Assembly (NCBI GenBank): GCA_021777675.1
Contig: JAJYDG010000001.1
Coordinates: 4,997 to 68,996 of the forward strand
Origin: a bacterium
Lineage (GTDB): Bacteria; Patescibacteriota; Minisyncoccia; Moranbacterales; UBA2206
DNA length: 64,000 bases
Direction: 5' to 3'
In this document: one piece after another, positions 8,899 through 29,131 of the stretch
How the letters are laid out: every line of letters begins with the position of its first letter
How positions within the stretch are numbered: position 1 is the first letter of the stretch
Translations under genes and position numbers: made by a program
The notes under the pieces: model-generated
The model's input: only the letters and a program-made list of their open reading frames with translations
Told to the model about the DNA's origin: nothing
Databases searched by the model: none

Positions 8899-11514
8899 AT
8901 GCGCAATCGTTTTTTTTCAAAAATTCACAGCATTTTCACACGAAATAACAATCCCGCTAAAAATACCGCTAATGGCTGGAAAAAAATTTTTAATTGGAAA
9001 TTTCTTCTTAAGTTTTTTGGAATTGGTTTTGGCTTAGTTGTTTTATTTATTGCAGGAGTTTTCGCTTATTTTTACAAAGAACTTCCAAATCCGGACAATA
9101 TCAATATGCGCTTTATCGCCGAATCCACCAAAATTTACGATCGCACCGGAACACATTTGCTCTATGATGTTCATGGAGAAGAAAAACGCACCCAAATTCC
9201 CTACGAACAAATGCCTGATACGCTCAAATACGCAACCATCTCACTGGAAGATCAAAATTTTTATCACCATCCGGGCATAGAATTGTCCGCTGTTGCCAGG
9301 GCGGCAATTGCCGATATTTTACATCGCGGAGCCTCGCAAGGAGCTTCAACAATAACACAGCAACTAATCAAACAATCCGTTCTTACTCCGGAAAAAACCC
9401 TTTCGAGAAAAATTAAAGAAGTAATTCTTTCTCTTGAGCTGGAGAGAAAATTTTCTAAAAATGAAATTTTGGCAATGTATCTCAATCAAATCCCCTACGG
9501 ATCAAATGCTTATGGAGTCGAGGCTGCTGCGCAAACTTTTTTTGGAAAACACGCCAAAGACCTTACTTTAGACGAATCAGCAATGCTAGCTTCATTGCCA
9601 CAGGCACCCTCCTACTATTCTCCCTACGGAAACCACAAGGACGCACTGAAAGGTCGCCAAGAATATGCCCTGAATCAAATGGCTAAACTTGGCTATATTA
9701 CTCAAGATCAAGCTAATCAAGCAAAAAGCGTTGATATTTTCGCCAAAATAAAACAAAGTTCTGAAAATATTTCCGCCCCTCATTTTGTAATGTATGTTAA
9801 AGAATACTTGGAAAAAAAATATGGCACACAAACAGTGGAACAGGGGGGATTAAAAGTTTATACAACACTAGATTGGGATAAGCAACAAATTGCCGAAAAA
9901 GCCGTTGCTGACGGAGCTGACAAAAACTCCAAACTCTATAATTCGGGAAATGCGGCTCTTGTCGCAATGGATCCAAAAACAGGACAGATCTTAGCTATGG
10001 TTGGCAGTAAAAGCTATTTCAAGCCAAGCGAACCCACCGGTTGCACGCCAGGAAAAAATTGCGTTTTTGAACCAAATGTTAATATTGCAACTGCGCTGTT
10101 GCAGCCAGGATCATCCTTTAAGCCCTATGTCTATCTCACTGCTTTTGAAAAAGGTTACACCCCGGAAACAAATATTTGGGATGTTGACACTAATTTCAGC
10201 ACCGACAGCGGAGCCGTCTATGATCCAAAAAATTATGACGGAAAAAATAGTGGCCTTATGCAAATGAAAGACGCGCTTGCCAGATCATTAAATGTTCCAT
10301 CCGTCAAGACGCTTTATCTTGCTGGAGTAAAAGATTCTATTGCTACGGCTCATAAAATGGGCATTACAACCCTTAATCAGCCAGATAGCTATGGACTCTC
10401 TTTGGTGCTTGGCGGAGGAGAGGTAAAATTACTTGATCATGTTAATGCCTTTTCTACATTTGCCACTGATGGTTTTCATCATGACACAACAGCAATTTTA
10501 CGCATTGAAGATAGTAAGGGCAATATTCTGGAAAAATACACTCAAAATGATGGGGAAAAAGTGGTGGATGAAAAATATATCGCAATGATTGATTATATTC
10601 TTTCCACAAACAGCCTTCGAGCGCCTGTTTTTGGAGACAAAAATCCGCTTAGTTTTGATAATCGTCCGGTTGCCGCAAAAACAGGAACCACTAATGATTG
10701 GCGAGATGGTTGGACAATTGGCTATACCCCTTCTATTGCTGTTGGGGTTTGGGCAGGTAATAATGATCACTCCAAAATGAAACCGGGAGCCGATGGAATA
10801 TTTGTTGCCGCACCAATTTGGCGCAGTTTTATGGATCAAGTCTTATCAAACTACGCAGTTGAACAATTTCCCACCTACACACCAGAAACAACAGGAAAGG
10901 ATGTTTTAGACGGAAAACTAGAAATGAAAAAAGAATTAAAGGTTTGCAAAATTCCAGGAACTAAAAATGATTATTGCTTAGCAACTTCCGCTTGTCCTAA
11001 TAGTGAGGTGGAAAAAAAGAAATTTTCCGATGCGCATAGTATTCTTTATTATGTCAACAAAGACGATCCTCGTGGCAATCCACCAAAAGATCCCTCAACC
11101 GACCCACAATTTAATAATTGGGAAACCGGTGTTACTAACTGGCTAAAGGATAATAAATACTCAACCGATCCAATTCCAACTGATGATTGTAAATCAAAAG
11201 ATTTTTCAAAATACAATCTTCAAATAGATTCTATTTCTCCTTCTGATGGGCAAACAGTAACATCATCACCACTCAACATATCCGTTAAAATCAATGCTCC
11301 ATATGGAGTTAAAAATGCCTCAATAAGCGTTGATGGATCAACAATTGCTTCTCAGGGCTCTGATTCTTTTGGTGCATCCTATTCCATTCCGGATAGCAAA
11401 AAAAATTCCAGCATAACTATTAGCGTTAATGCAACAGATAATAATGGAAATTCAGACTCAAAAAGCGTTAAAGTTAATATCAACATTCCGACATCAACAG
11501 TAACTACACCATAG
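8899..11514 (+). CDS. mrcA: class A penicillin-binding protein (PBP1A; transglycosylase + transpeptidase) with C-terminal Ig-like repeats
   Basis: N-terminal TM, GT51 motifs (…ISLEDQNFYHHPGIEL…RGASQGASTITQQL…) and transpeptidase SxxK/KTGT (…AAKTGTTNDWRDGW…); 871 aa. Confidence 0.9.
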   Translation: MRNRFFSKIHSIFTRNNNPAKNTANGWKKIFNWKFLLKFFGIGFGLVVLFIAGVFAYFYKELPNPDNINMRFIAESTKIYDRTGTHLLYDVHGEEKRTQIPYEQMPDTLKYATISLEDQNFYHHPGIELSAVARAAIADILHRGASQGASTITQQLIKQSVLTPEKTLSRKIKEVILSLELERKFSKNEILAMYLNQIPYGSNAYGVEAAAQTFFGKHAKDLTLDESAMLASLPQAPSYYSPYGNHKDALKGRQEYALNQMAKLGYITQDQANQAKSVDIFAKIKQSSENISAPHFVMYVKEYLEKKYGTQTVEQGGLKVYTTLDWDKQQIAEKAVADGADKNSKLYNSGNAALVAMDPKTGQILAMVGSKSYFKPSEPTGCTPGKNCVFEPNVNIATALLQPGSSFKPYVYLTAFEKGYTPETNIWDVDTNFSTDSGAVYDPKNYDGKNSGLMQMKDALARSLNVPSVKTLYLAGVKDSIATAHKMGITTLNQPDSYGLSLVLGGGEVKLLDHVNAFSTFATDGFHHDTTAILRIEDSKGNILEKYTQNDGEKVVDEKYIAMIDYILSTNSLRAPVFGDKNPLSFDNRPVAAKTGTTNDWRDGWTIGYTPSIAVGVWAGNNDHSKMKPGADGIFVAAPIWRSFMDQVLSNYAVEQFPTYTPETTGKDVLDGKLEMKKELKVCKIPGTKNDYCLATSACPNSEVEKKKFSDAHSILYYVNKDDPRGNPPKDPSTDPQFNNWETGVTNWLKDNKYSTDPIPTDDCKSKDFSKYNLQIDSISPSDGQTVTSSPLNISVKINAPYGVKNASISVDGSTIASQGSDSFGASYSIPDSKKNSSITISVNATDNNGNSDSKSVKVNINIPTSTVTTP

Positions 11515-19436: not shown

Positions 19437-19599
19437 AAAATAAAAAATAGAAATATTATTTTTAGTAACTCTACCCGAATTGTAGCGAAATTTGACATTG
19501 AAAGCAAACGCTATTGACAAATTTTAAAATAAGCCTACAGTAAATAGTTAGATTTAATTTTGAATCTAATTTTCTTTAACAATCAAAGGAGGTTTGATA

Positions 19600-20801
19600 T
19601 GCTAAATTTTATTCTGTTTCCTTTTTTTTGGTTGGGGGCAAGACTGATTAGATTCGGTCTGTGTATGTTTGGTTTTAAAAAAGTAGTTGCGGTGCAAATA
19701 TCCAATTACCGTGACGAAGCCGATGTCCGGCTGTTTGGTTTTTGGAATATCGAAAAAGCTCCGCGTGTTCTTTCATGGACTCAGTATGCATGGGAAGGAA
19801 TACGTGGAAAACTTTTTATGATCCGCGTTACGACGGATCAGATAAAGAAAGCCTTGGAGAATGCAGCGTCATCGCCAAGAGAGTTATTGCGCATCCGTGA
19901 ATTATTTATGGAAGCGGTTGATGAAGCGATCAAGTTGGGTGTCAAAAACGTTCTATTGGCTGCCGCAACAAAGAGGCTTTTCAAGAAAGGAGAACTTGAA
20001 TTATTGTTTCCCGGAGTGATTTTTACTCTTGGGGATAATTTTACAGGCCTATTACTTGCTAGACGCATAAAGGATAATTTTCGGATATATGGATTGAATC
20101 CGAAAACATCCAGAGTGCTTGTGATAGCACCATATGGATTTTTAGGTAAGGTGGCGCTATGCACAGTTTGCGAACTTGGTTGCCAGGTTGTCGGTTTTGG
20201 AAACTCAAAAAGACCGGAACTGACAAATGGTTTGGCAAAAAAATTTGGCTTTTTTCCGGTATTTGATTTTTCGGATGTTGGAAAAGTTGATATGGTCATT
20301 GCTTGCAGCGAGGCAAGACCGGTTCAGTTAACTCCGGAAAGAGTAAAGATGATTCGCAAGGCGGGAAAAAAATTGATTGTTATTGATCCTTGCGAACCGG
20401 CAAATATGACGCCGGAAATGGTGAAAAAATGTCTCGGCGCAGTAACGCGTTTCGACGCCGGAAATGGATATAGCTCGAGATTGAAATATGTTCTCGGTTA
20501 TGTTTCATACCGGGTTTTGAGACTCACGAAAGGAGAAACGTGGGGCTGTTTTTGCGAAAATTTTTTAATCGCAAAACATGAAAATCTCCAACAAGAGGAG
20601 GATTGGTTTTCCGTGACGCCGGAGCGCATTGAGCGTCTAAAAAAATACTATGGCAATGGAATGGGGCAGTTTTGTTTGCCACCGGCAAGTTGTCATGGAA
20701 AAAGCATAACAACATTTCCCCTTTATTTTTCAGAGGGAAAAATAAAAAATAAAGGGGCTTTTAATCTCGTTTGGGATGGGATTAAAAGTATTTTTTTGTA
20801 A
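19600..20801 (+). CDS. hypothetical protein, possible Rossmann-fold (shikimate/amino-acid dehydrogenase-like) domain; locally GC-enriched
   Basis: ATG at 19600 preceded by AAAGGAGG SD; …VLVIAPYGFLGKVALCTVCELGCQVVGFGNS… resembles an NAD(P)-binding segment; GC visibly higher than flanks. Confidence 0.4.
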
Positions 20802-20866: not shown

Positions 20867-23191
20867 TTGATTTTGAAATTTAATAAAAAAATGCTAGAAT
20901 TAAAAAATAAAAATAGCTTAATTGCTTTTATGCACAACCTAAGTCTTTTGCAGGTTTATCCATTGATTAGTTTGATTTTTATATTAACTCTTGGATTGAT
21001 TGTGTTGAAAAAAAATAGGAAATCCAAAGTGGGGACATTATTTTTTTCGATTACTTGCCTTTTTTCAATTTGGCTATTTGGAACATTTAAAATGCTTACC
21101 TGCACAAGCGATAAAGATATTGTTTTTTGGGACAGATTTATTTATCTGGGAGTTGTTTTTATGCCGGCAATTCAATATCACTTTAGTTTAATTTTCACAA
21201 AAACAAATAAAATCAGGAAGGCATTGCTTATTGTTGCGTATGTTTTTTCGATAACCTTTTTATTTTTAAGTCGAACTGATTATTTTGTATCAGGTGTTTT
21301 TAGATATGCATGGGGTGTTCATACGCTAGCTCACATGGGACACGATTTTTTTATGGTTTTTTTCTTTTTTTATATTTTTGCTTTATTGTATAATTTTATT
21401 ATTCAATATGTAAATACTGGCATAAGAATTGAAAAGCGCAAGATAGTATTTTTAATTGCCAGTTTTTCCGTTTTAAATTTAATTGGAGGAATTGGGTATT
21501 TACCGGCGTATAAAATTTCTATCTATTCGCCAATTTCATTACTTGCCCCATTGGCTTTTTCTATAATGATGACTTATGCCATAATCGTGCATCGTTTAAT
21601 GGACATTAAATTGGTGATGCGCAGATATTCCGTTCGCCTGGTTTCCATAATTATAATTTTATCGGTAGCATTAGAAATGCGCAGTCTTGCCGGATTACAT
21701 TTTTCTACCTATGCGAATCTGGTTGATTTTTTGATTTTAATTTTTGCAGTCTTGACTTATGCGCCAATTAGGTCTGGTTGTTATCGTGTTGCCAATAAAT
21801 ATTTCTTTTCTTCGTTATATGATAGTCGTTATGTGATTGCCAAAATAAGCGATAAACTTAGATCAACATTGGAAATAAATAAAATCAGCGAAAGTATTTA
21901 TGACATGCTAAACAAAGCTTTTCATATGAAATCTTTTGCGGTTTTAACTTTTAATCAAAAAGAAAAATGCTACTATGTTCAATATAATAATGGATTTAAT
22001 CTTGGCACGAAAAAAAAGTTTTCCAGTGACAAATATTTATACGATAGATTCATTGCCGGAAATGAAATAATTCTTTTTGAGGAAATTAAAAATAAAGTTT
22101 ATGATGAGAACACAAAAAAACAAATCGACATACTCACGGCGTTGGATGTGGATGTTATTGCACCTCTAAATGTTAAAAATAAAACGATTGGATTGTTGGT
22201 TTTTGGCGCAAAAGAATCTGGCGATATATATAACGAAGAGGATTTGGAAGTTTTGGAAACCGTTGATGCTCAAGTGGCAATTGCAATTGAAAATGCCGCT
22301 CTCTATGAAGAAACAAAAAATTTCAATCTTAAGTTAAAAAAAGAAGTTGAAATGGCGACAAAGGAATTGCGATCAGCCAATGAGGAATTGAAAAAGCTCG
22401 ATCAAGCAAAAACAGATTTTCTCAACATTGCTTCGCATCAGCTCAGAACGCCAATATCGGTAATTAAAGGTGTGGCATCAATGTTTGCCGAAGGAGATAT
22501 GGACAATCTTCCGCCAGAAAAAAAACAAGATTTTTATCAAGCAATTATTGTTAAAAGCGAAAAATTGGAAATGATTGTGCATGATATTATGAATGCCACT
22601 TCACTTACCGCTAAAAAATATAGCGTAATGGACAAAGAAGCGGAAACAATTGATCTAAGAGAATTAATAGAAAATATTTTAAATGATTTCAATCTGGAAA
22701 TAGAAAAACGACAATTGATTGTTAAATTATTATCGGCGGAAGAAGCCACGCCTAAAATTAGAGGACAAAAAGAATACCTCAGAGAAGCATTTATAAATTT
22801 ATTGAGTAATGCCATAAAATATACTCCGTCTACCGGAATGACAAGCGATATCAGGAGTAAGCGAGACGAAAGAGGCGTGATTAAGATTAGTCTTGGAAGG
22901 GATCCAAAAAATGAAAATAATGTTTTAGTTAAAATAAAAGACAACGGAATTGGTATTCCCGCAGATGACTTGCCTAGATTGTTTAAGAAATTTTCTCGAG
23001 CAGAGAATGCTAAGAATATGTATACTGATGGGACAGGAATCGGCTTATTTGTTGTTAAGGAAGTAGTTGATGGTCACAATGGAAAAGTCTGGGTGGAAAG
23101 TGAACTGGGAAAAGGGTCGACATTTTTTGTCAGCTTGCCGATTTATTCCAAGGAAAAAGTAGATGTTAAAAAATATATTTTGACTAATTAG
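20867..23191 (+). CDS. sensor histidine kinase: multi-TM N-terminal domain, GAF domain, HisKA, HATPase_c
   Basis: ~8 hydrophobic helices in first 300 aa; H-box FLNIASHQLRTPISVIKG; N/G boxes …LLSNAIKYT… DNGIGIPADDLPRLFKKF… GTGIGLFVVK…. Confidence 0.85.
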   Translation: MILKFNKKMLELKNKNSLIAFMHNLSLLQVYPLISLIFILTLGLIVLKKNRKSKVGTLFFSITCLFSIWLFGTFKMLTCTSDKDIVFWDRFIYLGVVFMPAIQYHFSLIFTKTNKIRKALLIVAYVFSITFLFLSRTDYFVSGVFRYAWGVHTLAHMGHDFFMVFFFFYIFALLYNFIIQYVNTGIRIEKRKIVFLIASFSVLNLIGGIGYLPAYKISIYSPISLLAPLAFSIMMTYAIIVHRLMDIKLVMRRYSVRLVSIIIILSVALEMRSLAGLHFSTYANLVDFLILIFAVLTYAPIRSGCYRVANKYFFSSLYDSRYVIAKISDKLRSTLEINKISESIYDMLNKAFHMKSFAVLTFNQKEKCYYVQYNNGFNLGTKKKFSSDKYLYDRFIAGNEIILFEEIKNKVYDENTKKQIDILTALDVDVIAPLNVKNKTIGLLVFGAKESGDIYNEEDLEVLETVDAQVAIAIENAALYEETKNFNLKLKKEVEMATKELRSANEELKKLDQAKTDFLNIASHQLRTPISVIKGVASMFAEGDMDNLPPEKKQDFYQAIIVKSEKLEMIVHDIMNATSLTAKKYSVMDKEAETIDLRELIENILNDFNLEIEKRQLIVKLLSAEEATPKIRGQKEYLREAFINLLSNAIKYTPSTGMTSDIRSKRDERGVIKISLGRDPKNENNVLVKIKDNGIGIPADDLPRLFKKFSRAENAKNMYTDGTGIGLFVVKEVVDGHNGKVWVESELGKGSTFFVSLPIYSKEKVDVKKYILTN

Positions 23192-23208: not shown

Positions 23209-23613
23209 ATGACAAGAGTATTGTTTGTTGAAGACGATCCTGATCAAATTATGATTTATGAAGTTAAATTTAGGCTGGAAGGTATCGATTTGACTGTTGC
23301 AACAGAAGAAAAAGAGGTGTTTGATGCTCTCGCAAAAGAAAAGATCGATTTGATTTTGTTGGATATTTTAATAAAAGAGCAAAACGGGCTTGATATTTTG
23401 GAGAAAATTAGAAAGGAAGCTGATTTCAAAAAACTTCCGGTAATTGTTTTTACAAATTTTGACAAAAAAGAAACGAGAGATAGGGCGGAAAGTCTTGGAG
23501 CGATTGATTATATTATTAAAGCACAAACATATCCTCGAGAGATGACGGAAAAAATAAAAGCTTTTGCAAAAACAGGGATTTATACTAAAGGAGTCAGCAA
23601 TAAAAGCGTTTAA
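23209..23613 (+). CDS. stand-alone response regulator receiver (REC) domain protein
   Basis: MTRVLFVEDDPDQ…LILLDILIKEQNGLDILEKIR…LPVIVFTNF… CheY-like fold with phospho-acceptor Asp; no output domain (134 aa). Confidence 0.85.
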   Translation: MTRVLFVEDDPDQIMIYEVKFRLEGIDLTVATEEKEVFDALAKEKIDLILLDILIKEQNGLDILEKIRKEADFKKLPVIVFTNFDKKETRDRAESLGAIDYIIKAQTYPREMTEKIKAFAKTGIYTKGVSNKSV

Positions 23614-23768: not shown

Positions 23769-24464
23769 TCATTTCCTCACCAACTCCACCCGAATCCTTT
23801 TCGCCATAATTTTCCCATCATCGTCCCGATAATCTCCTTCTTCGGCCACTTTTTCAAAGCCCAGAAGTTTAACAATTTTATGCGACGGACCATTTTCCGG
23901 TACGTGCGCAATTAGTTTTTTTGCACCGCTAGAAAATTCTTTTTCCACAATTTCACGCAAAAAGTTTTCTCCGAAATAGAATTTTTGCAGAATCGGATCG
24001 ATATTCATCGCGCCCAAATAACGCTCGCCTTCCGGCAATGTTTCAATTTGCCCGTCGGATTTTACGAGGCAATTTGATGAACGCATAAAACCAACCATGT
24101 TTTCCAAAGACTTTTTTGGCTTGTCATTATTGTCTTTATCAAAATAGATCAAATAAAATTTGGGATTGTGCTTCTTGTGCGTTTCAAAATCAGTTAATAA
24201 CCGTGCCTGGTCTTCTTTGGATTTATGCTCAATGCTCGCGCGATACATCTCGGTGAGTTTTTCCACCAGTGCCGGATTTTTCACAAACCCCTCTTCACTG
24301 ACAGTTTCCATTTCCACCCCGCGAATATCTTCCAATTTTTGCCCCTCACCAGCTTTTTTGGTTGCAATCAAAAGCGCCGCCATAATCTCAATGTCGATCC
24401 GGCTTTTTTCCAAATCCATCAAAAGTTTTTGGATTTTTTCCTCGCTCGCCTTTCCGTTTTTCAA
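23769..24464 (-). CDS. hypothetical protein with possible C-terminal GNAT-like acetyltransferase fold
   Basis: 231 aa; C-terminal …QKFYFGENFLREIVEKEFSSGAKKLIAHVPENGPSHKIVKLLGFEKV… resembles GNAT motifs A/B; N-terminal half uncharacterised. Confidence 0.4.
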   Translation of the reverse strand: MKNGKASEEKIQKLLMDLEKSRIDIEIMAALLIATKKAGEGQKLEDIRGVEMETVSEEGFVKNPALVEKLTEMYRASIEHKSKEDQARLLTDFETHKKHNPKFYLIYFDKDNNDKPKKSLENMVGFMRSSNCLVKSDGQIETLPEGERYLGAMNIDPILQKFYFGENFLREIVEKEFSSGAKKLIAHVPENGPSHKIVKLLGFEKVAEEGDYRDDDGKIMAKRIRVELVRK

Positions 24465-24536
24465 TTCATTCGCAAATTGTAGGATTATACCATGAGCTTT
24501 TCTGAGTAGCTCCGTCCAAATATCCGCCGGAATTTT

Positions 24537-26114
24537 TTATTCTTTGTTCTTGAAAATAATTCCGGCCAGACTTTCGCTTTTTTGTTGAGCCAAGTCAACA
24601 ATACCGGATACTTTTTGAAAAATTTTCATCGCGTCCACTGAATCAATCTTTTCTCCTATCTTCAATATATTTTTCCCATTTTCAATATCAAATTCGCAAG
24701 TCAGGAATGTTTTTAAGCCGGAAAGCCCATATTTTTTAGTAAAATCTAACAATTGTTCTTTTTGTCCTTGCGTACTCAACTCAAAAGCGGCAGCGGCCAA
24801 CCACTGTTGTTCCTTCCAACTAAGATTATGAATTCCAATGCCACTTTTTTGGGAAAATTCATCACTTATTTTTTGAAGATAATTATAATCACCCAATAAA
24901 CTTACCCGTTCGGCATATTGCTCCGGCGATTCTTCTCTTTTTTTCTGGCTTTCCTTTGTTCGCAACCACGGACGAATCCTCTCGTTCATTTCTCTCTTAT
25001 TCAAAAATGTTCTGGCGGAAAGTTCACTACTCGAACTGTTGGGAAATTTTTCTTGCACTTCCGCTTTTTTTTCTTCTTTTTCTTTTTCGCTCAGTAATGG
25101 AAAGATATATTTTATTTCCTCTTTACCATCAGTTCGCACTACTACTCCCACCGTTTCTCGATCAAGCAGAACGGTTTTGATGTTTTCTGTCGGATATTTT
25201 TTGCCTTCAAAGATAAAGCCCTCTCTGCCCAGATAATATTTAACCCCGCCATGGGAGAAAAAATTAGCTTCTCCTTTTTTCATTTCCTTTTTTTCTCGCA
25301 ACAATTCTCCGCTCGACCCGGTTGCTATCACCCCAAAATCATCCATACGCAACATTCCATTAGCCAAAAGATGCGGGCATTCTTTCCGTAAAAATCGATG
25401 GATGGAAGATTTCATTTCCGTGAAAGAAAAATTGCCCATATTCTCCTCCAGCCAATCGATACTTAACGGACGATAAGCCTCTCTTTTTTTATCAAATACC
25501 AATAATTTTCCGTCCTTATTCCGCTTCGCGCCATATTCCCGATAAAGCTTGGTAGTTAAAGCAAATTCTTTCGGATTTATTTCCTCTCCATTTTTTGCTT
25601 GAAATTTAAAATTATTCCAAGATGTTTTCTTACTGATATCCCAAAAATTCAAATGATATTTTTTGGCCTTTAGCTTTTCTTCATTAAAAGATTCTTCTAT
25701 GCTATCCGGAACATTGAAAAGTGGCGTGGCGACAATATCTTTTCCCCCCTCACTTTTTTGCTGATACTCCTGCGGAGTTACGACATACAAATCACGCAAA
25801 GCATCAAATAATTCTTGCTTGCTTGATCGTAAAGTAAGCCTAGCGATTTCACTTGCATCCGCTTTTTTTGTCTTTTTTTCATCTTTCAAGGAAATTTCTA
25901 CCAAAAAACGTTCCACATCAAAAACAGCTAATTCATTTTCAAATTTCAAAATTCCGTCTTTTTCCAAAGCGGAAAAAACTTTTTCCCTCAAAGAATTGTT
26001 TTCTTTGTTTTCTAATCTATTTCCTGACACATTGAAATCAACTTTTTCATCCGCCTTTTTCTTGCTACCCACTGGCGTTTTGAAATAACCCTCTCCTTCT
26101 TCATATTTTCGCAT
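24537..26114 (-). CDS. large hypothetical protein (525 aa), no recognisable domain
   Basis: long uninterrupted ORF with balanced, Lys/Glu-rich composition typical of this genome; co-oriented with and 72 nt upstream of the GNAT-like gene. Confidence 0.6.
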   Translation of the reverse strand: MRKYEEGEGYFKTPVGSKKKADEKVDFNVSGNRLENKENNSLREKVFSALEKDGILKFENELAVFDVERFLVEISLKDEKKTKKADASEIARLTLRSSKQELFDALRDLYVVTPQEYQQKSEGGKDIVATPLFNVPDSIEESFNEEKLKAKKYHLNFWDISKKTSWNNFKFQAKNGEEINPKEFALTTKLYREYGAKRNKDGKLLVFDKKREAYRPLSIDWLEENMGNFSFTEMKSSIHRFLRKECPHLLANGMLRMDDFGVIATGSSGELLREKKEMKKGEANFFSHGGVKYYLGREGFIFEGKKYPTENIKTVLLDRETVGVVVRTDGKEEIKYIFPLLSEKEKEEKKAEVQEKFPNSSSSELSARTFLNKREMNERIRPWLRTKESQKKREESPEQYAERVSLLGDYNYLQKISDEFSQKSGIGIHNLSWKEQQWLAAAAFELSTQGQKEQLLDFTKKYGLSGLKTFLTCEFDIENGKNILKIGEKIDSVDAMKIFQKVSGIVDLAQQKSESLAGIIFKNKE

Positions 26115-26168
26115 AGTTCTAATCTTAATCTACTTATAGCCAATACTCATATTTTATACTATTTTAGG

Positions 26169-26210
26169 AAAAATAAAAAAGCCGTACATTGGGTGGTGAC
26201 CAAATGACGG
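26169..26210 (-). terminator. intrinsic terminator-like hairpin for a minus-strand transcript (GCCGTCAT…ATGTACGGC then U-run on minus strand)
   Basis: imperfect 8-9 bp stem 26181-26210 followed on the minus strand by TTTTTTATTTTT (A-run 26169-26180 on plus). Confidence 0.45.
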
Positions 26211-26653
26211 CTTTACGTTCGTGGTTGCGAACTGATTTTGCCCATCCTATTGCCGGGACCAGCTAGCAGGGATTCACGCGTTTACCGACTGCTTTGCGAC
26301 CGTTTGAGACTAGCAAAAAAACTAGTGAGTCTAGGATTTTAGACCCCAACCGGGTCAAACTTGACTGGTTGCCATCGGCAAGGGCAACCTTCTGGCCCCG
26401 AGAGGGGACCAGAAGGATGATCCTGCATCGTATGTTCTACGATGCAGGACACTTCCTTTCACAAATGTGAAAGAAAATGCCCTTCTTACTACATACTCAT
26501 GCTGGGGATCCTCCCAGCGAAGGCACAGACATTCGCCTGTACCTTCAATGACACCACTCCTAAAAAGGAATGGCATCAAAAAATTTAATTCTTCGGAGAT
26601 CCACATTGATCCTCCCCTGCCCGACTTACGCTTCGGGTCCGAGCGTTTTTTTT
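26181..26653. ncRNA. candidate large structured RNA (unidentified): GC-rich (~50%) run of near-perfect hairpins bounded by outward-facing hairpin+U-run structures
   Basis: hairpins seen directly: CCTTCTGGCCCC-GAGA-GGGGaCCAGAAGG (26396-26424), TCCTGCATCGTA-TGTTC-TACGATGCAGGA (26430-26458), TTTCAC-AAAT-GTGAAA, GCTGGG-GATCCT-CCCAGC, GAAGG…CCTTC; right end hairpin + TTTTTTTT at 26622-26653 (plus strand); strand undetermined. Confidence 0.35.
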
Positions 26654-26895: not shown

Positions 26896-27330
26896 TTATC
26901 TGATTCCGAGAAAAATCTTCTCGAAATCAGCACAGAAAGGCCTCGGGACATAGTCCCAAGCCTTCCATTGTGCTTCCCAATTACTGGTGCTATTGCACCA
27001 GTAATAAAACTTGGAAAGCGCTTCTTTTTTTGCCACTAGTTCCTCGACCGAGGAACCCATGGCGTCGAGGACTATTTGCATAGCCCTCCCTATATCCGCC
27101 CCGTACGCGTGCGCATACGAGTAGAGAACACTCGAATCATTCCGGATGTTCTCTTCTGGTCTGATCCATATGTGGCCGTTGGCCACAAAATAGATCAATT
27201 TTTCTTCAAATTTTTTTTTGCTCTCACAGAAATCCGTGAGAGCATTTCCATTCCAACCTTCCACTGGATCGCTCCAGTTTCCGGCTGACGCCCTTCCGAG
27301 AAACTCGAAAGGGTTTAATTTTATTTCCAT
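26896..27330 (-). CDS. orphan GC-rich hypothetical protein (145-174 aa) inside the GC-rich block
   Basis: ORF track 26896-27420; internal ATG at 27330 (MEIKLNPFEFLGRASAGNWSDPVEGWNGNALTDF…); non-repetitive, Trp/Tyr-rich protein-like composition unlike the rest of the window; could also be a chance ORF in GC-rich structured DNA. Confidence 0.35.
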   Translation of the reverse strand: MEIKLNPFEFLGRASAGNWSDPVEGWNGNALTDFCESKKKFEEKLIYFVANGHIWIRPEENIRNDSSVLYSYAHAYGADIGRAMQIVLDAMGSSVEELVAKKEALSKFYYWCNSTSNWEAQWKAWDYVPRPFCADFEKIFLGIR

Positions 27331-27378
27331 TTCAACTCCCGTCCCATTTCTACCCCGCCAGACGTAGCGGCTAAAACA

Positions 27379-27550
27379 TTTACCACTAATAAAACTTAGT
27401 GGTATCCGGTTATTGACCATCGGAACCGGAAATTCCTATCCCCATTTTAGCTGGGGAATACTGGGTCAGTTCGCATCATTGCTCGTAATGAGTGGCGAAC
27501 CGAAAACTTATTCCCGGGGGACGAAGCGCTGATCCCCGGGTGTTTTTTTT
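27379..27550 (+). ncRNA. candidate small structured RNA or leader: five consecutive hairpins ending in a strong intrinsic terminator
   Basis: ACCACTAA-N6-TTAGTGGT, TCCGGTT…AACCGGA, CCCCA…TGGGG, GTTCGC[ATCATT…AATGA]…GCGAAC, then CCCGGGGG-N13-CCCCGGG + TTTTTTTT (27513-27550); no downstream plus-strand gene for ~800 nt. Confidence 0.3.
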
Positions 27551-28187
27551 GACTTTTCCCCAGAAAATTCCAGATTAAATGAATCCTAGATATTCGATGT
27601 CCATTATGGACATTAAATGTCTTTGTGCCCGGAATCTTTTGGGAAAAAGCCAAAGTATTTATTTTTTAACGAACTCTACGAACTAGCTCTTCTTTTCTAA
27701 TTCACAAAAATGCCAGTGATAATTTACATTTAATTTTCGAAGAAGAGAGATTTTGACGAAAAATCAAATTATATTCTCATCACTAGCATTTTTCTAAAGA
27801 TGATTCATAATCATCTCTAGCTCTCTTCTTTTTATTCGTAATCAAATGCACTTCTAGACTCTCTTCTATTGGAAAGCCTGCTTCCGATTTCAAAAATAAA
27901 TTGAAACCGGAGACCACTTTCCATCTCGCGATGGCTCGCGAAATGTGAAACGAATTTGTTTGCCTTGTCCTAGCCAACCAATCCATAACCCTACAAAAAA
28001 TTAATGGATTGCCTATCTCTCTCTACTAAGACTTTGGTATGCCTTTTCGTTTCTTGTGCCATTCAATGATCCTTTTCGTCTTGAACATCTTTTTTTCTTT
28101 CGAAAATTAGAAAATTTCAGGACAATCGTGATACATTATTTGATTGAAAGAACTTTGTTTTGTTAAGTGAAGATTCTCTCTTCTTCG

Positions 28188-28208
28188 ATTGCCAATCTCT
28201 CTGGCAAT
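28188..28208. promoter_or_regulatory. palindromic candidate operator ATTGCCA-N7-TGGCAAT upstream of the TrmB-like regulator gene
   Basis: 7-bp perfect inverted repeat with 7-nt spacer, ~80 nt upstream of the -35 element. Confidence 0.3.
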
Positions 28209-28290
28209 TCATCTTAACAAGCAAGTATAGCATCTTTTAAGCTAACTGTCAATTATACTCGACTTATTTTGCTTATTTTTATTTTATAAA

Positions 28291-28378: not shown

Positions 28379-29131
28379 ATGAACCTATCTGACCAACTAA
28401 TCCAATTCGGGCTCAACAGAAACCAAGCAGAGACTTATCTGGCACTTTTGGAATTGGGACAATCCGGCGTTATTCCGCTTGCCAAAAAGACCGGCATCAA
28501 GCGGACGACACTCTATGACATCTTGGTGGAACTCGAGAAAAAACAACTGGTAGCGCAGACAAAAAAGGCCACAAGAAGGCTTTTTATTGCGCTTGAGCCA
28601 TCGAATCTGGAGAAGGTTTTAGAAGAAAAACGCGAAAGACTAGAAAGTTTGATGCCGGCACTAAAAGCCCTGGTCAACACGACCGGAACCAAACCCGTAA
28701 TCCGCTACTATGAAGGCTTGGAAGGCATCAAGGAAGTCTATCGTGACACCTTGAGTTATAGCGGAGAACTTTTGGCCTTTGTGGCGGAAAACATCTTTGA
28801 CAAGCTAGGCAAGGAGTTTGCTGATGAGTATAAAACCAAGCGCAAAAAGGCTCAGATTGGCGTGCGCATTTTGGTGCCGGAAACACCGGAACTCAAAAAA
28901 GAGCTGGTTACGGTCAAGGAAGACTTGCGCATCTATCGCTTTGTCCCGAAAGAAAAATATCCCTTCACAATGGAAATGAATCTTTATGGCAACAAAATGG
29001 CGCTAATGTCCTTTCAAGAAGAATTGGGCGTGATCATTGAAAGCAATGAAATCAGCCAAAACCTGCGCTATCTTTTTGAGCTAGCATGGACTGGTGCTAA
29101 ACCAAAAGGGGAAGAGGAAAATTATTGGTAA
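28379..29131 (+). CDS. TrmB-family (sugar-responsive) transcriptional regulator
   Basis: N-terminal winged HTH …LNRNQAETYLALLELGQSGVIPLAKKTGIKRTTLYDILVELEKKQLV… typical of HTH_TrmB, with a C-terminal TrmB-like effector domain; GC higher than genome background. Confidence 0.7.
   Translation: MNLSDQLIQFGLNRNQAETYLALLELGQSGVIPLAKKTGIKRTTLYDILVELEKKQLVAQTKKATRRLFIALEPSNLEKVLEEKRERLESLMPALKALVNTTGTKPVIRYYEGLEGIKEVYRDTLSYSGELLAFVAENIFDKLGKEFADEYKTKRKKAQIGVRILVPETPELKKELVTVKEDLRIYRFVPKEKYPFTMEMNLYGNKMALMSFQEELGVIIESNEISQNLRYLFELAWTGAKPKGEEENYW

Follow-up and report, generated by a model that had tools for sequence, protein, structure and literature searches.

A two-module GNAT-family gene, in all likelihood cut by a nonsense codon at its inter-domain linker, in a Patescibacteria genome

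The window, as we call the whole stretch of 64,000 nucleotides that was analysed, carries on its minus strand two ORFs of 525 and 231 amino acids separated by 72 nt, where they had first been placed. They converge with genes for a sensor kinase and a stand-alone receiver, an arrangement borne out by the Pfam domains of the identical genes in locus L001. The features of the region are the following.

20867..23191, plus strand: histidine kinase (Pfam HisKA_7TM/GAF/HisKA/HATPase_c recorded for the identical gene in L001)
23209..23613, plus strand: stand-alone response regulator (Pfam Response_reg recorded for the identical gene in L001)
23769..24464, minus strand: ORF of 231 aa with a TTG start, 72 nt from the 525-aa ORF, coordinates confirmed; it encodes the second hairpin helix and the GNAT domain and ends at the true stop of the gene
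23772..24323, minus strand: GNAT-fold acyltransferase domain, about residues 598-781 of the read-through product
24465..24536, minus strand: the 72-nt "spacer", 24 in-frame codons (KIPADIWTELLRKAHGIILQFANE L) according to the alignment with relatives
24484..24492, minus strand: TGGTATAAT, a perfect match to the extended -10 consensus, candidate internal promoter
24537..24539, minus strand: in-frame TAA nonsense codon, CAA (Gln526) in the intact orthologue
24537..26114, minus strand: ORF of 525 aa, coordinates confirmed
24540..26114, minus strand: N-terminal module, codons 1-525, the part before the TAA
about 26151-26158, minus strand: AT-rich leader with a TATAAAAT box, 37 nt before the ATG
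about 26169-26214, minus strand: terminator-like hairpin AAAGCCGT...ACGGCTTT and a T-run, read from the sequence
28379..29131, plus strand: gene of a TrmB-family HTH regulator (Pfam TrmB, E 1.1e-11)

The preliminary description took the two ORFs for a two-gene operon with a 72-nt spacer. Translation of 23769-26114 (minus strand) in a single frame gives instead 525 codons, one TAA and 255 open codons; the gap is a multiple of three and both ORFs share the same frame. Gene callers choose for the downstream ORF the ATG at 24419, yielding a product of 216 aa. The "spacer" codes for most of the first helix of a hairpin that precedes the GNAT domain. Its translation, KIPADIWTELLRKAHGIILQFANEL, matches residue for residue the uninterrupted orthologue P0002 (...FKNKEQKISADIWTELLRKAH...), and distant members too. 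It is aligned and conserved in the related loci L003, L005, L006 and L004, with a dN/dS (NG86) of 0.17 across the 24 codons between the window and L003. The homologue search finds that all relatives of the 525-aa protein are longer (644-889 aa), some with GNAT domains. The closest, P0002, has 87% identity and 776 aa, a length near 525 + 24 + 231, while the downstream ORF is 76% identical to its carboxyl-terminal part. A single uninterrupted ORF is present in all 11 distant genomic loci examined, and the two-ORF arrangement is found in no relative outside the narrow sub-clade of the window. The operon is thus not sustained. Conserved pairing of the two parts does exist, as a fusion in most family members and not as separate genes.

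The two ORFs are set apart by a single C->T change that turns CAA (Gln526) into TAA. The junction reads GAA-TAA-AAA in the window, L001 and L002 versus GAG-CAA-AAA in L003, and the relatives have at this position CAA or other sense codons, a stop in none. In the structural model of P0002 the site falls in a linker (residues 523-528, pLDDT <50) between helices 492-520 and 527-553, which is the natural module junction of the family. We conclude with high confidence that this was a single ancestral gene and that a genuine nonsense codon now cuts it in the linker between the domains.

Thirteen contigs from at least two assemblies encode exactly this 525-aa product, two ENA assemblies and an NCBI genome being among the sources. 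One of these samples also contains the intact allele, on another contig with the same downstream response regulator and kinase genes. An assembly error was rejected because the identical allele recurs on 13 contigs of at least two assemblies. The common frame of both parts and the conserved coding sequence after the stop would also suit read-through or recoding of the TAA, with a full-length protein of ~781 aa still being made. Of the 33 long ORFs in the window, however, 24 end in TAA, and 14 of the 33 in TAA-A, which is the junction context and the commonest genuine terminator. The stop is conserved in no relative and the four tRNAs of the window are all ordinary, with no suppressor among them. 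To our knowledge TAA is not used for selenocysteine or pyrrolysine. Programmed recoding or read-through was rejected on the grounds that the stop is not conserved and lies in an ordinary terminator context; together with assembly error, we regard this explanation as highly improbable.

The protein before the stop had been described as lacking any recognisable motif, and Pfam, NCBIfam, PADLOC and PHROGs, applied to the two products and their relatives, indeed matched only GNATs and gave nothing for the N-terminal module. Neither a homologue of known function nor a structural match could be detected for this module. A PDB sequence search with the family profile returns only GNATs, and the CoA-ligase and ATP-grasp domains of Pfam do not match the module. 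No housekeeping homology was found for the 525-aa protein, and conserved pairing, in the form of the fusion, is not lacking either. The model of the 525-aa product (mean pLDDT 78.8) agrees with the AF2 model of P0002 (76.5). In both, residues 1-37 form a disordered head; small alpha/beta units come next, then a beta-rich part at ~275-339 and a helical domain at 343-522, in which sits the most conserved motif of the family, GIGIHNLSW(K/R)EQQWLAAA. In the P0002 model these are followed by the low-confidence linker, a two-helix hairpin (527-587) and the GNAT domain (598-776).

The likeness of the carboxyl terminus of the 231-aa protein to GNAT enzymes, noticed early on, is supported by structure: the predicted fold has a mixed beta-sheet with the characteristic beta4-alpha3 / beta5 splay, and by this modelled fold the C-terminal module is a member of the GNAT superfamily. 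Its own sequence stays under the Pfam cut-off (best score FR47, 15.5 bits versus 22.1), while at the level of the family six of 17 members match PF00583, the best at 1.4e-7, and the family profile matches PDB GNATs at 1.4e-7. The domain of the window belongs to a divergent sub-type, in which extra residues are inserted after beta-2/3. Its motif A reads Q-K-F-Y-F-G versus the canonical Q/R-x-x-G-x-G/A, keeping the first Gln and the last Gly (G715, conserved in at least 80% of the family) and having Tyr for the middle Gly; elsewhere in the family the motif is RGLGVG, QGLSVG and similar. Since motif A is atypical, the catalytic competence of this domain is a prediction.

Inside the narrow sub-clade of the window the two modules are separated in four different ways. 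The gene is intact in L003. L005 has an in-frame stop in the N-terminal part and a frameshift in an A-rich run just before the C-terminal module. The N-terminal module is missing from the locus in L004 and L006, where homology starts at P0002 residues 524 and 495, respectively; the truncated copy is preceded in L004 by genes of the nucleotidyltransferase type (PF01909/PF18765) and ORF6N, and in L006 by an unrelated ORF. AbiE (AbiEii) or MNT/HEPN-type toxin-antitoxin genes adjoin the truncated copies of L004 and L005. The C-terminal module of the sub-clade is of a distinct type: its copies in the window, L003, L004, L005, L006 and the full-length protein P0030 share 57-76% identity, and other family members reach 30% at the most. 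All five lineages keep it open for ~242 codons in spite of saturated synonymous divergence (pS 0.6-0.77, pN 0.12-0.25). The stand-alone copies of L004 and L006 are open and constrained ORFs with 58-68% identity, indicating that selection can act on this module alone.

Compared with L003, the window has a dN/dS of 0.20 in the N-terminal part and 0.085 in the C-terminal part; these low values may largely predate the stop, so that either half could already be a young pseudogene. All 26 positions that are at least 80% conserved across 139 diverse members are kept in the window, 20 before and six after the stop. Nucleotide identity between the two loci drops from ~91% to 62-80% only in the segment coding for the GNAT domain, the flanking genes having 89%, and pS in the C-terminal module rises from 0.27 to 0.65. 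Decay after the mutation was rejected as the cause of this jump, the excess being mostly synonymous and dN/dS still 0.085. The ratios of N- to C-terminal identity are discordant between lineages. The jump and the discordance speak against decay and for modules whose histories are in part separate, probably through recombination where they join.

One alternative is a plain young pseudogene, in which the 525-aa product is a non-functional fragment and the downstream ORF is untranslated and too recent to have decayed. It would fit a premature stop in a gene that is otherwise always fused, the decay or loss seen in close relatives (stop and frameshift in L005, truncation in L004 and L006), which makes the locus evidently dispensable in part, and a C-terminal ORF preceded by no Shine-Dalgarno motif or conserved start signal. 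The usual marks of a decayed pseudogene, namely multiple lesions, relaxed constraint and lost conserved residues, are not what is seen: there is one lesion only in 2343 nt, placed exactly at the inter-domain linker and not at a random position, no conserved residue has been lost, the allele is the same on all 13 contigs, and stand-alone C-terminal modules persist under constraint in relatives. We consider this explanation unlikely, though deserving serious attention.

A functional fission into a two-subunit enzyme has a smaller chance of being correct. Both halves would be expressed and re-associate non-covalently, and the "operon" would be a newly born gene pair. The split at the linker, the intactness and constraint of both halves, and the separability of the N-terminal module, joined to other C-terminal domains in 10 of 161 proteins, are in its favour. 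However, the sub-clade loses (L004, L006) or damages (L005) the N-terminal module and keeps the C-terminal one, which therefore appears to be independent of its former partner. In addition, the likely product of the downstream ORF, started at the TTG or the ATG, is devoid of most or all of the first hairpin helix, a part that would have been the natural interface.

How the downstream ORF might be expressed was approached through the promoter-like box TGGTATAAT, located 33 nt past the TAA and 19 nt upstream of the TTG at 24464. Its equivalent is TGCTATAAT in the disrupted locus L005 and TAATATAAT, devoid of TG, in the intact L003; the stand-alone copies of L004 and L006 have ATTAT at the site, with new DNA upstream. 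A role as internal promoter for separate expression of the C-terminal module is suggestive only, and a tentative assignment since the box is present in two disrupted copies and absent from the stand-alone ones. The box is a consensus match within an AT-rich genome, and a consensus scan finds promoter-like sites in the region to be no more numerous than in shuffled sequence. Shine-Dalgarno motifs are found before none of 33 genes and a -10-like box lies 7-20 nt before the start codon of many, suggesting short-leader or leaderless mRNAs. Upstream of the 525-aa ORF, the terminator said to precede the promoter is recognizable as a hairpin with a T-run, then an AT-rich leader with a TATAAAAT box, but the assignment of 26151..26214 is a doubtful one because the consensus scan missed it, the loop being over the limit of the tool and the -35 having no match.

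We privilege the hypothesis, which we hold to be somewhat better than an even bet, of one interrupted gene whose GNAT module is still functional alone and whose N-terminal module is dispensable and being shed in the sub-clade. The ancestral gene of ~781 codons would have encoded an N-terminal module of orphan fold (~590 residues), a helical hairpin and a GNAT acyl-CoA-dependent N-acyltransferase. The C->T change would have placed the TAA right in the flexible linker between modules. The main product should now be the 525-aa N-terminal module alone, because ribosomes meet the normal stop signal of the genome. Re-initiation, or transcription from the extended -10 box past the TAA, may yield the GNAT module as a product of its own (231 aa with the TTG at 24464 as start, 216 aa with the ATG at 24419), and this product may still work as an acyltransferase. 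By analogy only, with large GNAT fusions such as the Pat-type enzymes, the N-terminal part is most likely a substrate-targeting or regulatory scaffold, and the intact protein would most likely acetylate a macromolecular target (a protein) recruited by it.

The family is large. An exhaustive HMM search of 1.84 billion cluster representatives retrieves 945 representatives at E<=1e-30, which amounts to ~945 clusters counted at 50% identity; it overturned the tiny family of about 17 clusters given by a word-index homologue search. Genome records place its members in Moranbacteria/Moraniibacteriota, Komeilibacteria and unclassified Patescibacteria. Among 161 proteins classified against the family profile, 109 are full fusions of the N-terminal module and GNAT, 10 have the N-terminal module and a different C-terminal region with no Pfam match, the switch being always at profile positions ~535-580, and seven end early, including the protein of the window; fragments and divergent forms make up the other 35. 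A literature search brought up nothing specific on such a GNAT fusion in Patescibacteria. With its orphan-fold N-terminal module, the family is a variant of multi-domain GNAT enzymes for which no description came up.

The conserved neighbour of the family is a TrmB-family regulator rather than a free-standing GNAT gene. The flanks retrieved include a TrmB homologue in 10 of 15 distinct loci, even at 30-40% identity of the family protein, and several of the loci devoid of it end too early to tell. The TrmB gene is upstream and divergent in the window; most distant lineages have it directly downstream, in convergent orientation (L008/9/14, L010/11/21, L016, L017, L019, L020, L022); it is also upstream in L004 and L015. 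The polA gene often adjoins the family gene. PADLOC revealed nothing significant and no defence-family match, PHROGs gave only generic acetyltransferase matches, and those only for the relative P0005, and tblastn against 50,697 phage records found no homologue. Since TrmB/polA synteny extends across distant lineages and these phage and defence comparisons are negative, the locus looks chromosomal and stable, not a mobile island. A theme of peptide or aminoacyl modification or of defence had been put forward; with no match of the N-terminal module in PADLOC or PHROGs, no phage homologue and no antitoxin-like partner, it finds no support. The association with the neighbouring structured block of 2.2 kb holds within the close sub-clade and not beyond it. 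In Rfam this block has no match that reaches the gathering threshold and only noise up to E<=1, and its conserved hairpin has no compensatory changes.

These observations allow a bolder and tentative proposal, to which we give about the same limited credence as to the young pseudogene. The N-terminal module (~525-590 residues) would be a new Patescibacteria-specific fold of about a thousand clusters, serving as a targeting or sensing platform for exchangeable C-terminal effectors, mostly GNAT, and functionally tied to TrmB. The window would then present a fission in progress, with the GNAT half made autonomous by an internal promoter.

For annotation, the hypothetical proteins of 525 and 216 aa should be joined into a single gene marked as interrupted, and the pair is not one to pursue in mining for defence or modification systems. 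What emerges is a large uncharacterised Patescibacteria family with an orphan-fold module, GNAT and a linkage to TrmB. Its protein of ~800 aa is likely to matter, as it is conserved in bacteria whose genomes are very small. The most interesting aspects that remain are the conserved link of the orphan module to TrmB and the natural fission series, which runs inside one narrow clade from an intact gene to a gene split at the linker, to a damaged and finally a lost N-terminal module. This series indicates which module is under stronger selection and provides ready-made truncation constructs for testing both.

The closest known systems differ from the gene of the window in instructive ways. The GNAT superfamily (Pfam clan Acetyltrans; PF00583, PF13508, PF13673) accommodates its C-terminal module, of a sub-type below every Pfam cut-off that carries an insertion and the Q-K-F-Y-F-G form of motif A, and the ancestral fusion to a module of ~590 residues is found in no characterised GNAT. 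The lysine acetyltransferases Pat/YfiQ/PatZ have an N-terminal NDP-forming acyl-CoA-synthetase-like domain and a C-terminal GNAT domain. The family resembles them in its layout, a big non-catalytic or regulatory N-terminal module followed by a C-terminal GNAT in a cytoplasmic protein of 750-900 aa, but its N-terminal module is unrelated, with no CoA-ligase/ATP-grasp match, and the resemblance is an analogy, not membership. Type II GNAT toxins such as TacT/AtaT/ItaT pair with DUF1778/RHH antitoxins of ~90 aa. The small GNAT ORF after another ORF of the same strand recalls them, whereas the upstream ORF of the window is the N-terminal part of the same protein and not a ~90-aa antitoxin. A toxin-antitoxin pair of the TacT/AtaT type was rejected, there being no DUF1778/RHH match in Pfam and no PADLOC match at a locus that is syntenic across distant lineages. 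There is also a likeness to genes split by a nonsense mutation in a linker, known from gene fission and from early pseudogenisation in reduced genomes, where one point mutation generates two adjacent ORFs of the same frame and relatives show intact and further-decayed states; what distinguishes the present case is that, in one narrow clade, four different mechanisms have repeatedly broken the gene between the same two modules, and that the downstream module is demonstrably maintained.

Within the neighbouring block, which the preliminary description had named the structured GC-rich block, a 174-aa ORF lies upstream of the interrupted gene and on the same strand. Its product shares 71% amino acid sequence identity with that of the close relative L003, and the mismatches fall at codon positions 1, 2 and 3 in the numbers 14, 15 and 35. 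This interval is a genuine protein-coding gene and no structured RNA. It has no match in Pfam or NCBIfam. The features discussed here are the following.

Features around the interrupted gene and in loci of relatives
Window 19560-20801, plus strand: 413-aa ORF upstream of the kinase gene
Window 26896-27420, minus strand: 174-aa ORF within the GC-rich block
Window ~27656-27830, minus-strand orientation: conserved non-coding element (L003 1-331, L004 4811-5009, L005 19-116)
Window 28176-28229, plus strand: motif CTCTCTTCTTCGA and a 27-nt stretch, ~150-200 nt 5' of the TrmB gene start
L004 4067-5701 and 6751-8152, L005 3776-4817: toxin-antitoxin-type gene regions flanking the family gene
L010 6001-9609: P0017, N-module with a C-terminal region other than GNAT

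The non-coding element is conserved 5' of the family gene in all members of the close sub-clade and contains a perfect 20-bp hairpin, TCTTTAGAAAAATGCTAGTGAT...ATCACTGGCATTTTTGTGAA, flanking TTGATTTTTCGTCAAAATCTCTCTTCTTCGAAAATCAAAT. It has no match in Rfam, and the close sub-clade copies display zero compensatory changes in the hairpin because the compared sequences are too similar.

The truncated or damaged family genes of the relatives L004 and L005 are flanked by mobile toxin-antitoxin-type genes, whose insertion may have caused the truncations. In L004, ORF6N and a nucleotidyltransferase gene (PF01909/PF18765) lie upstream, with a 206-aa gene and AbiEii downstream. Downstream in L005 are a 206-aa gene of equal size and one further ORF, with no Pfam on record. 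The 413-aa ORF has no significant Pfam match; its L003 counterpart, 379 aa long, is assigned to PF12076 (CER1-like_C) in precomputed annotation.

None of the 33 window ORFs of at least 250 aa is preceded by a Shine-Dalgarno-like motif. Many of them have a TATAAT-like box 7-20 nt 5' of the start codon, suggesting that leaderless or short-leader translation is widespread in this organism. Their stop codons are TAA (24), TAG (7) and TGA (2).

Family proteins P0017, P0021, P0037, P0041 and P0082 have, in place of the GNAT domain, a C-terminal region of ~600 residues with no Pfam match, while the N-module is retained, as is the TrmB gene as a convergent neighbour. Upstream of the window's TrmB gene, motif CTCTCTTCTTCGA, found again within the GC-rich block, is followed by the 27-nt stretch (28203-28229). 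This stretch is 96% identical to positions 9554-9580 of the distant family locus L008, located at the same distance upstream of the TrmB gene there, and may serve as an operator or promoter element of TrmB.
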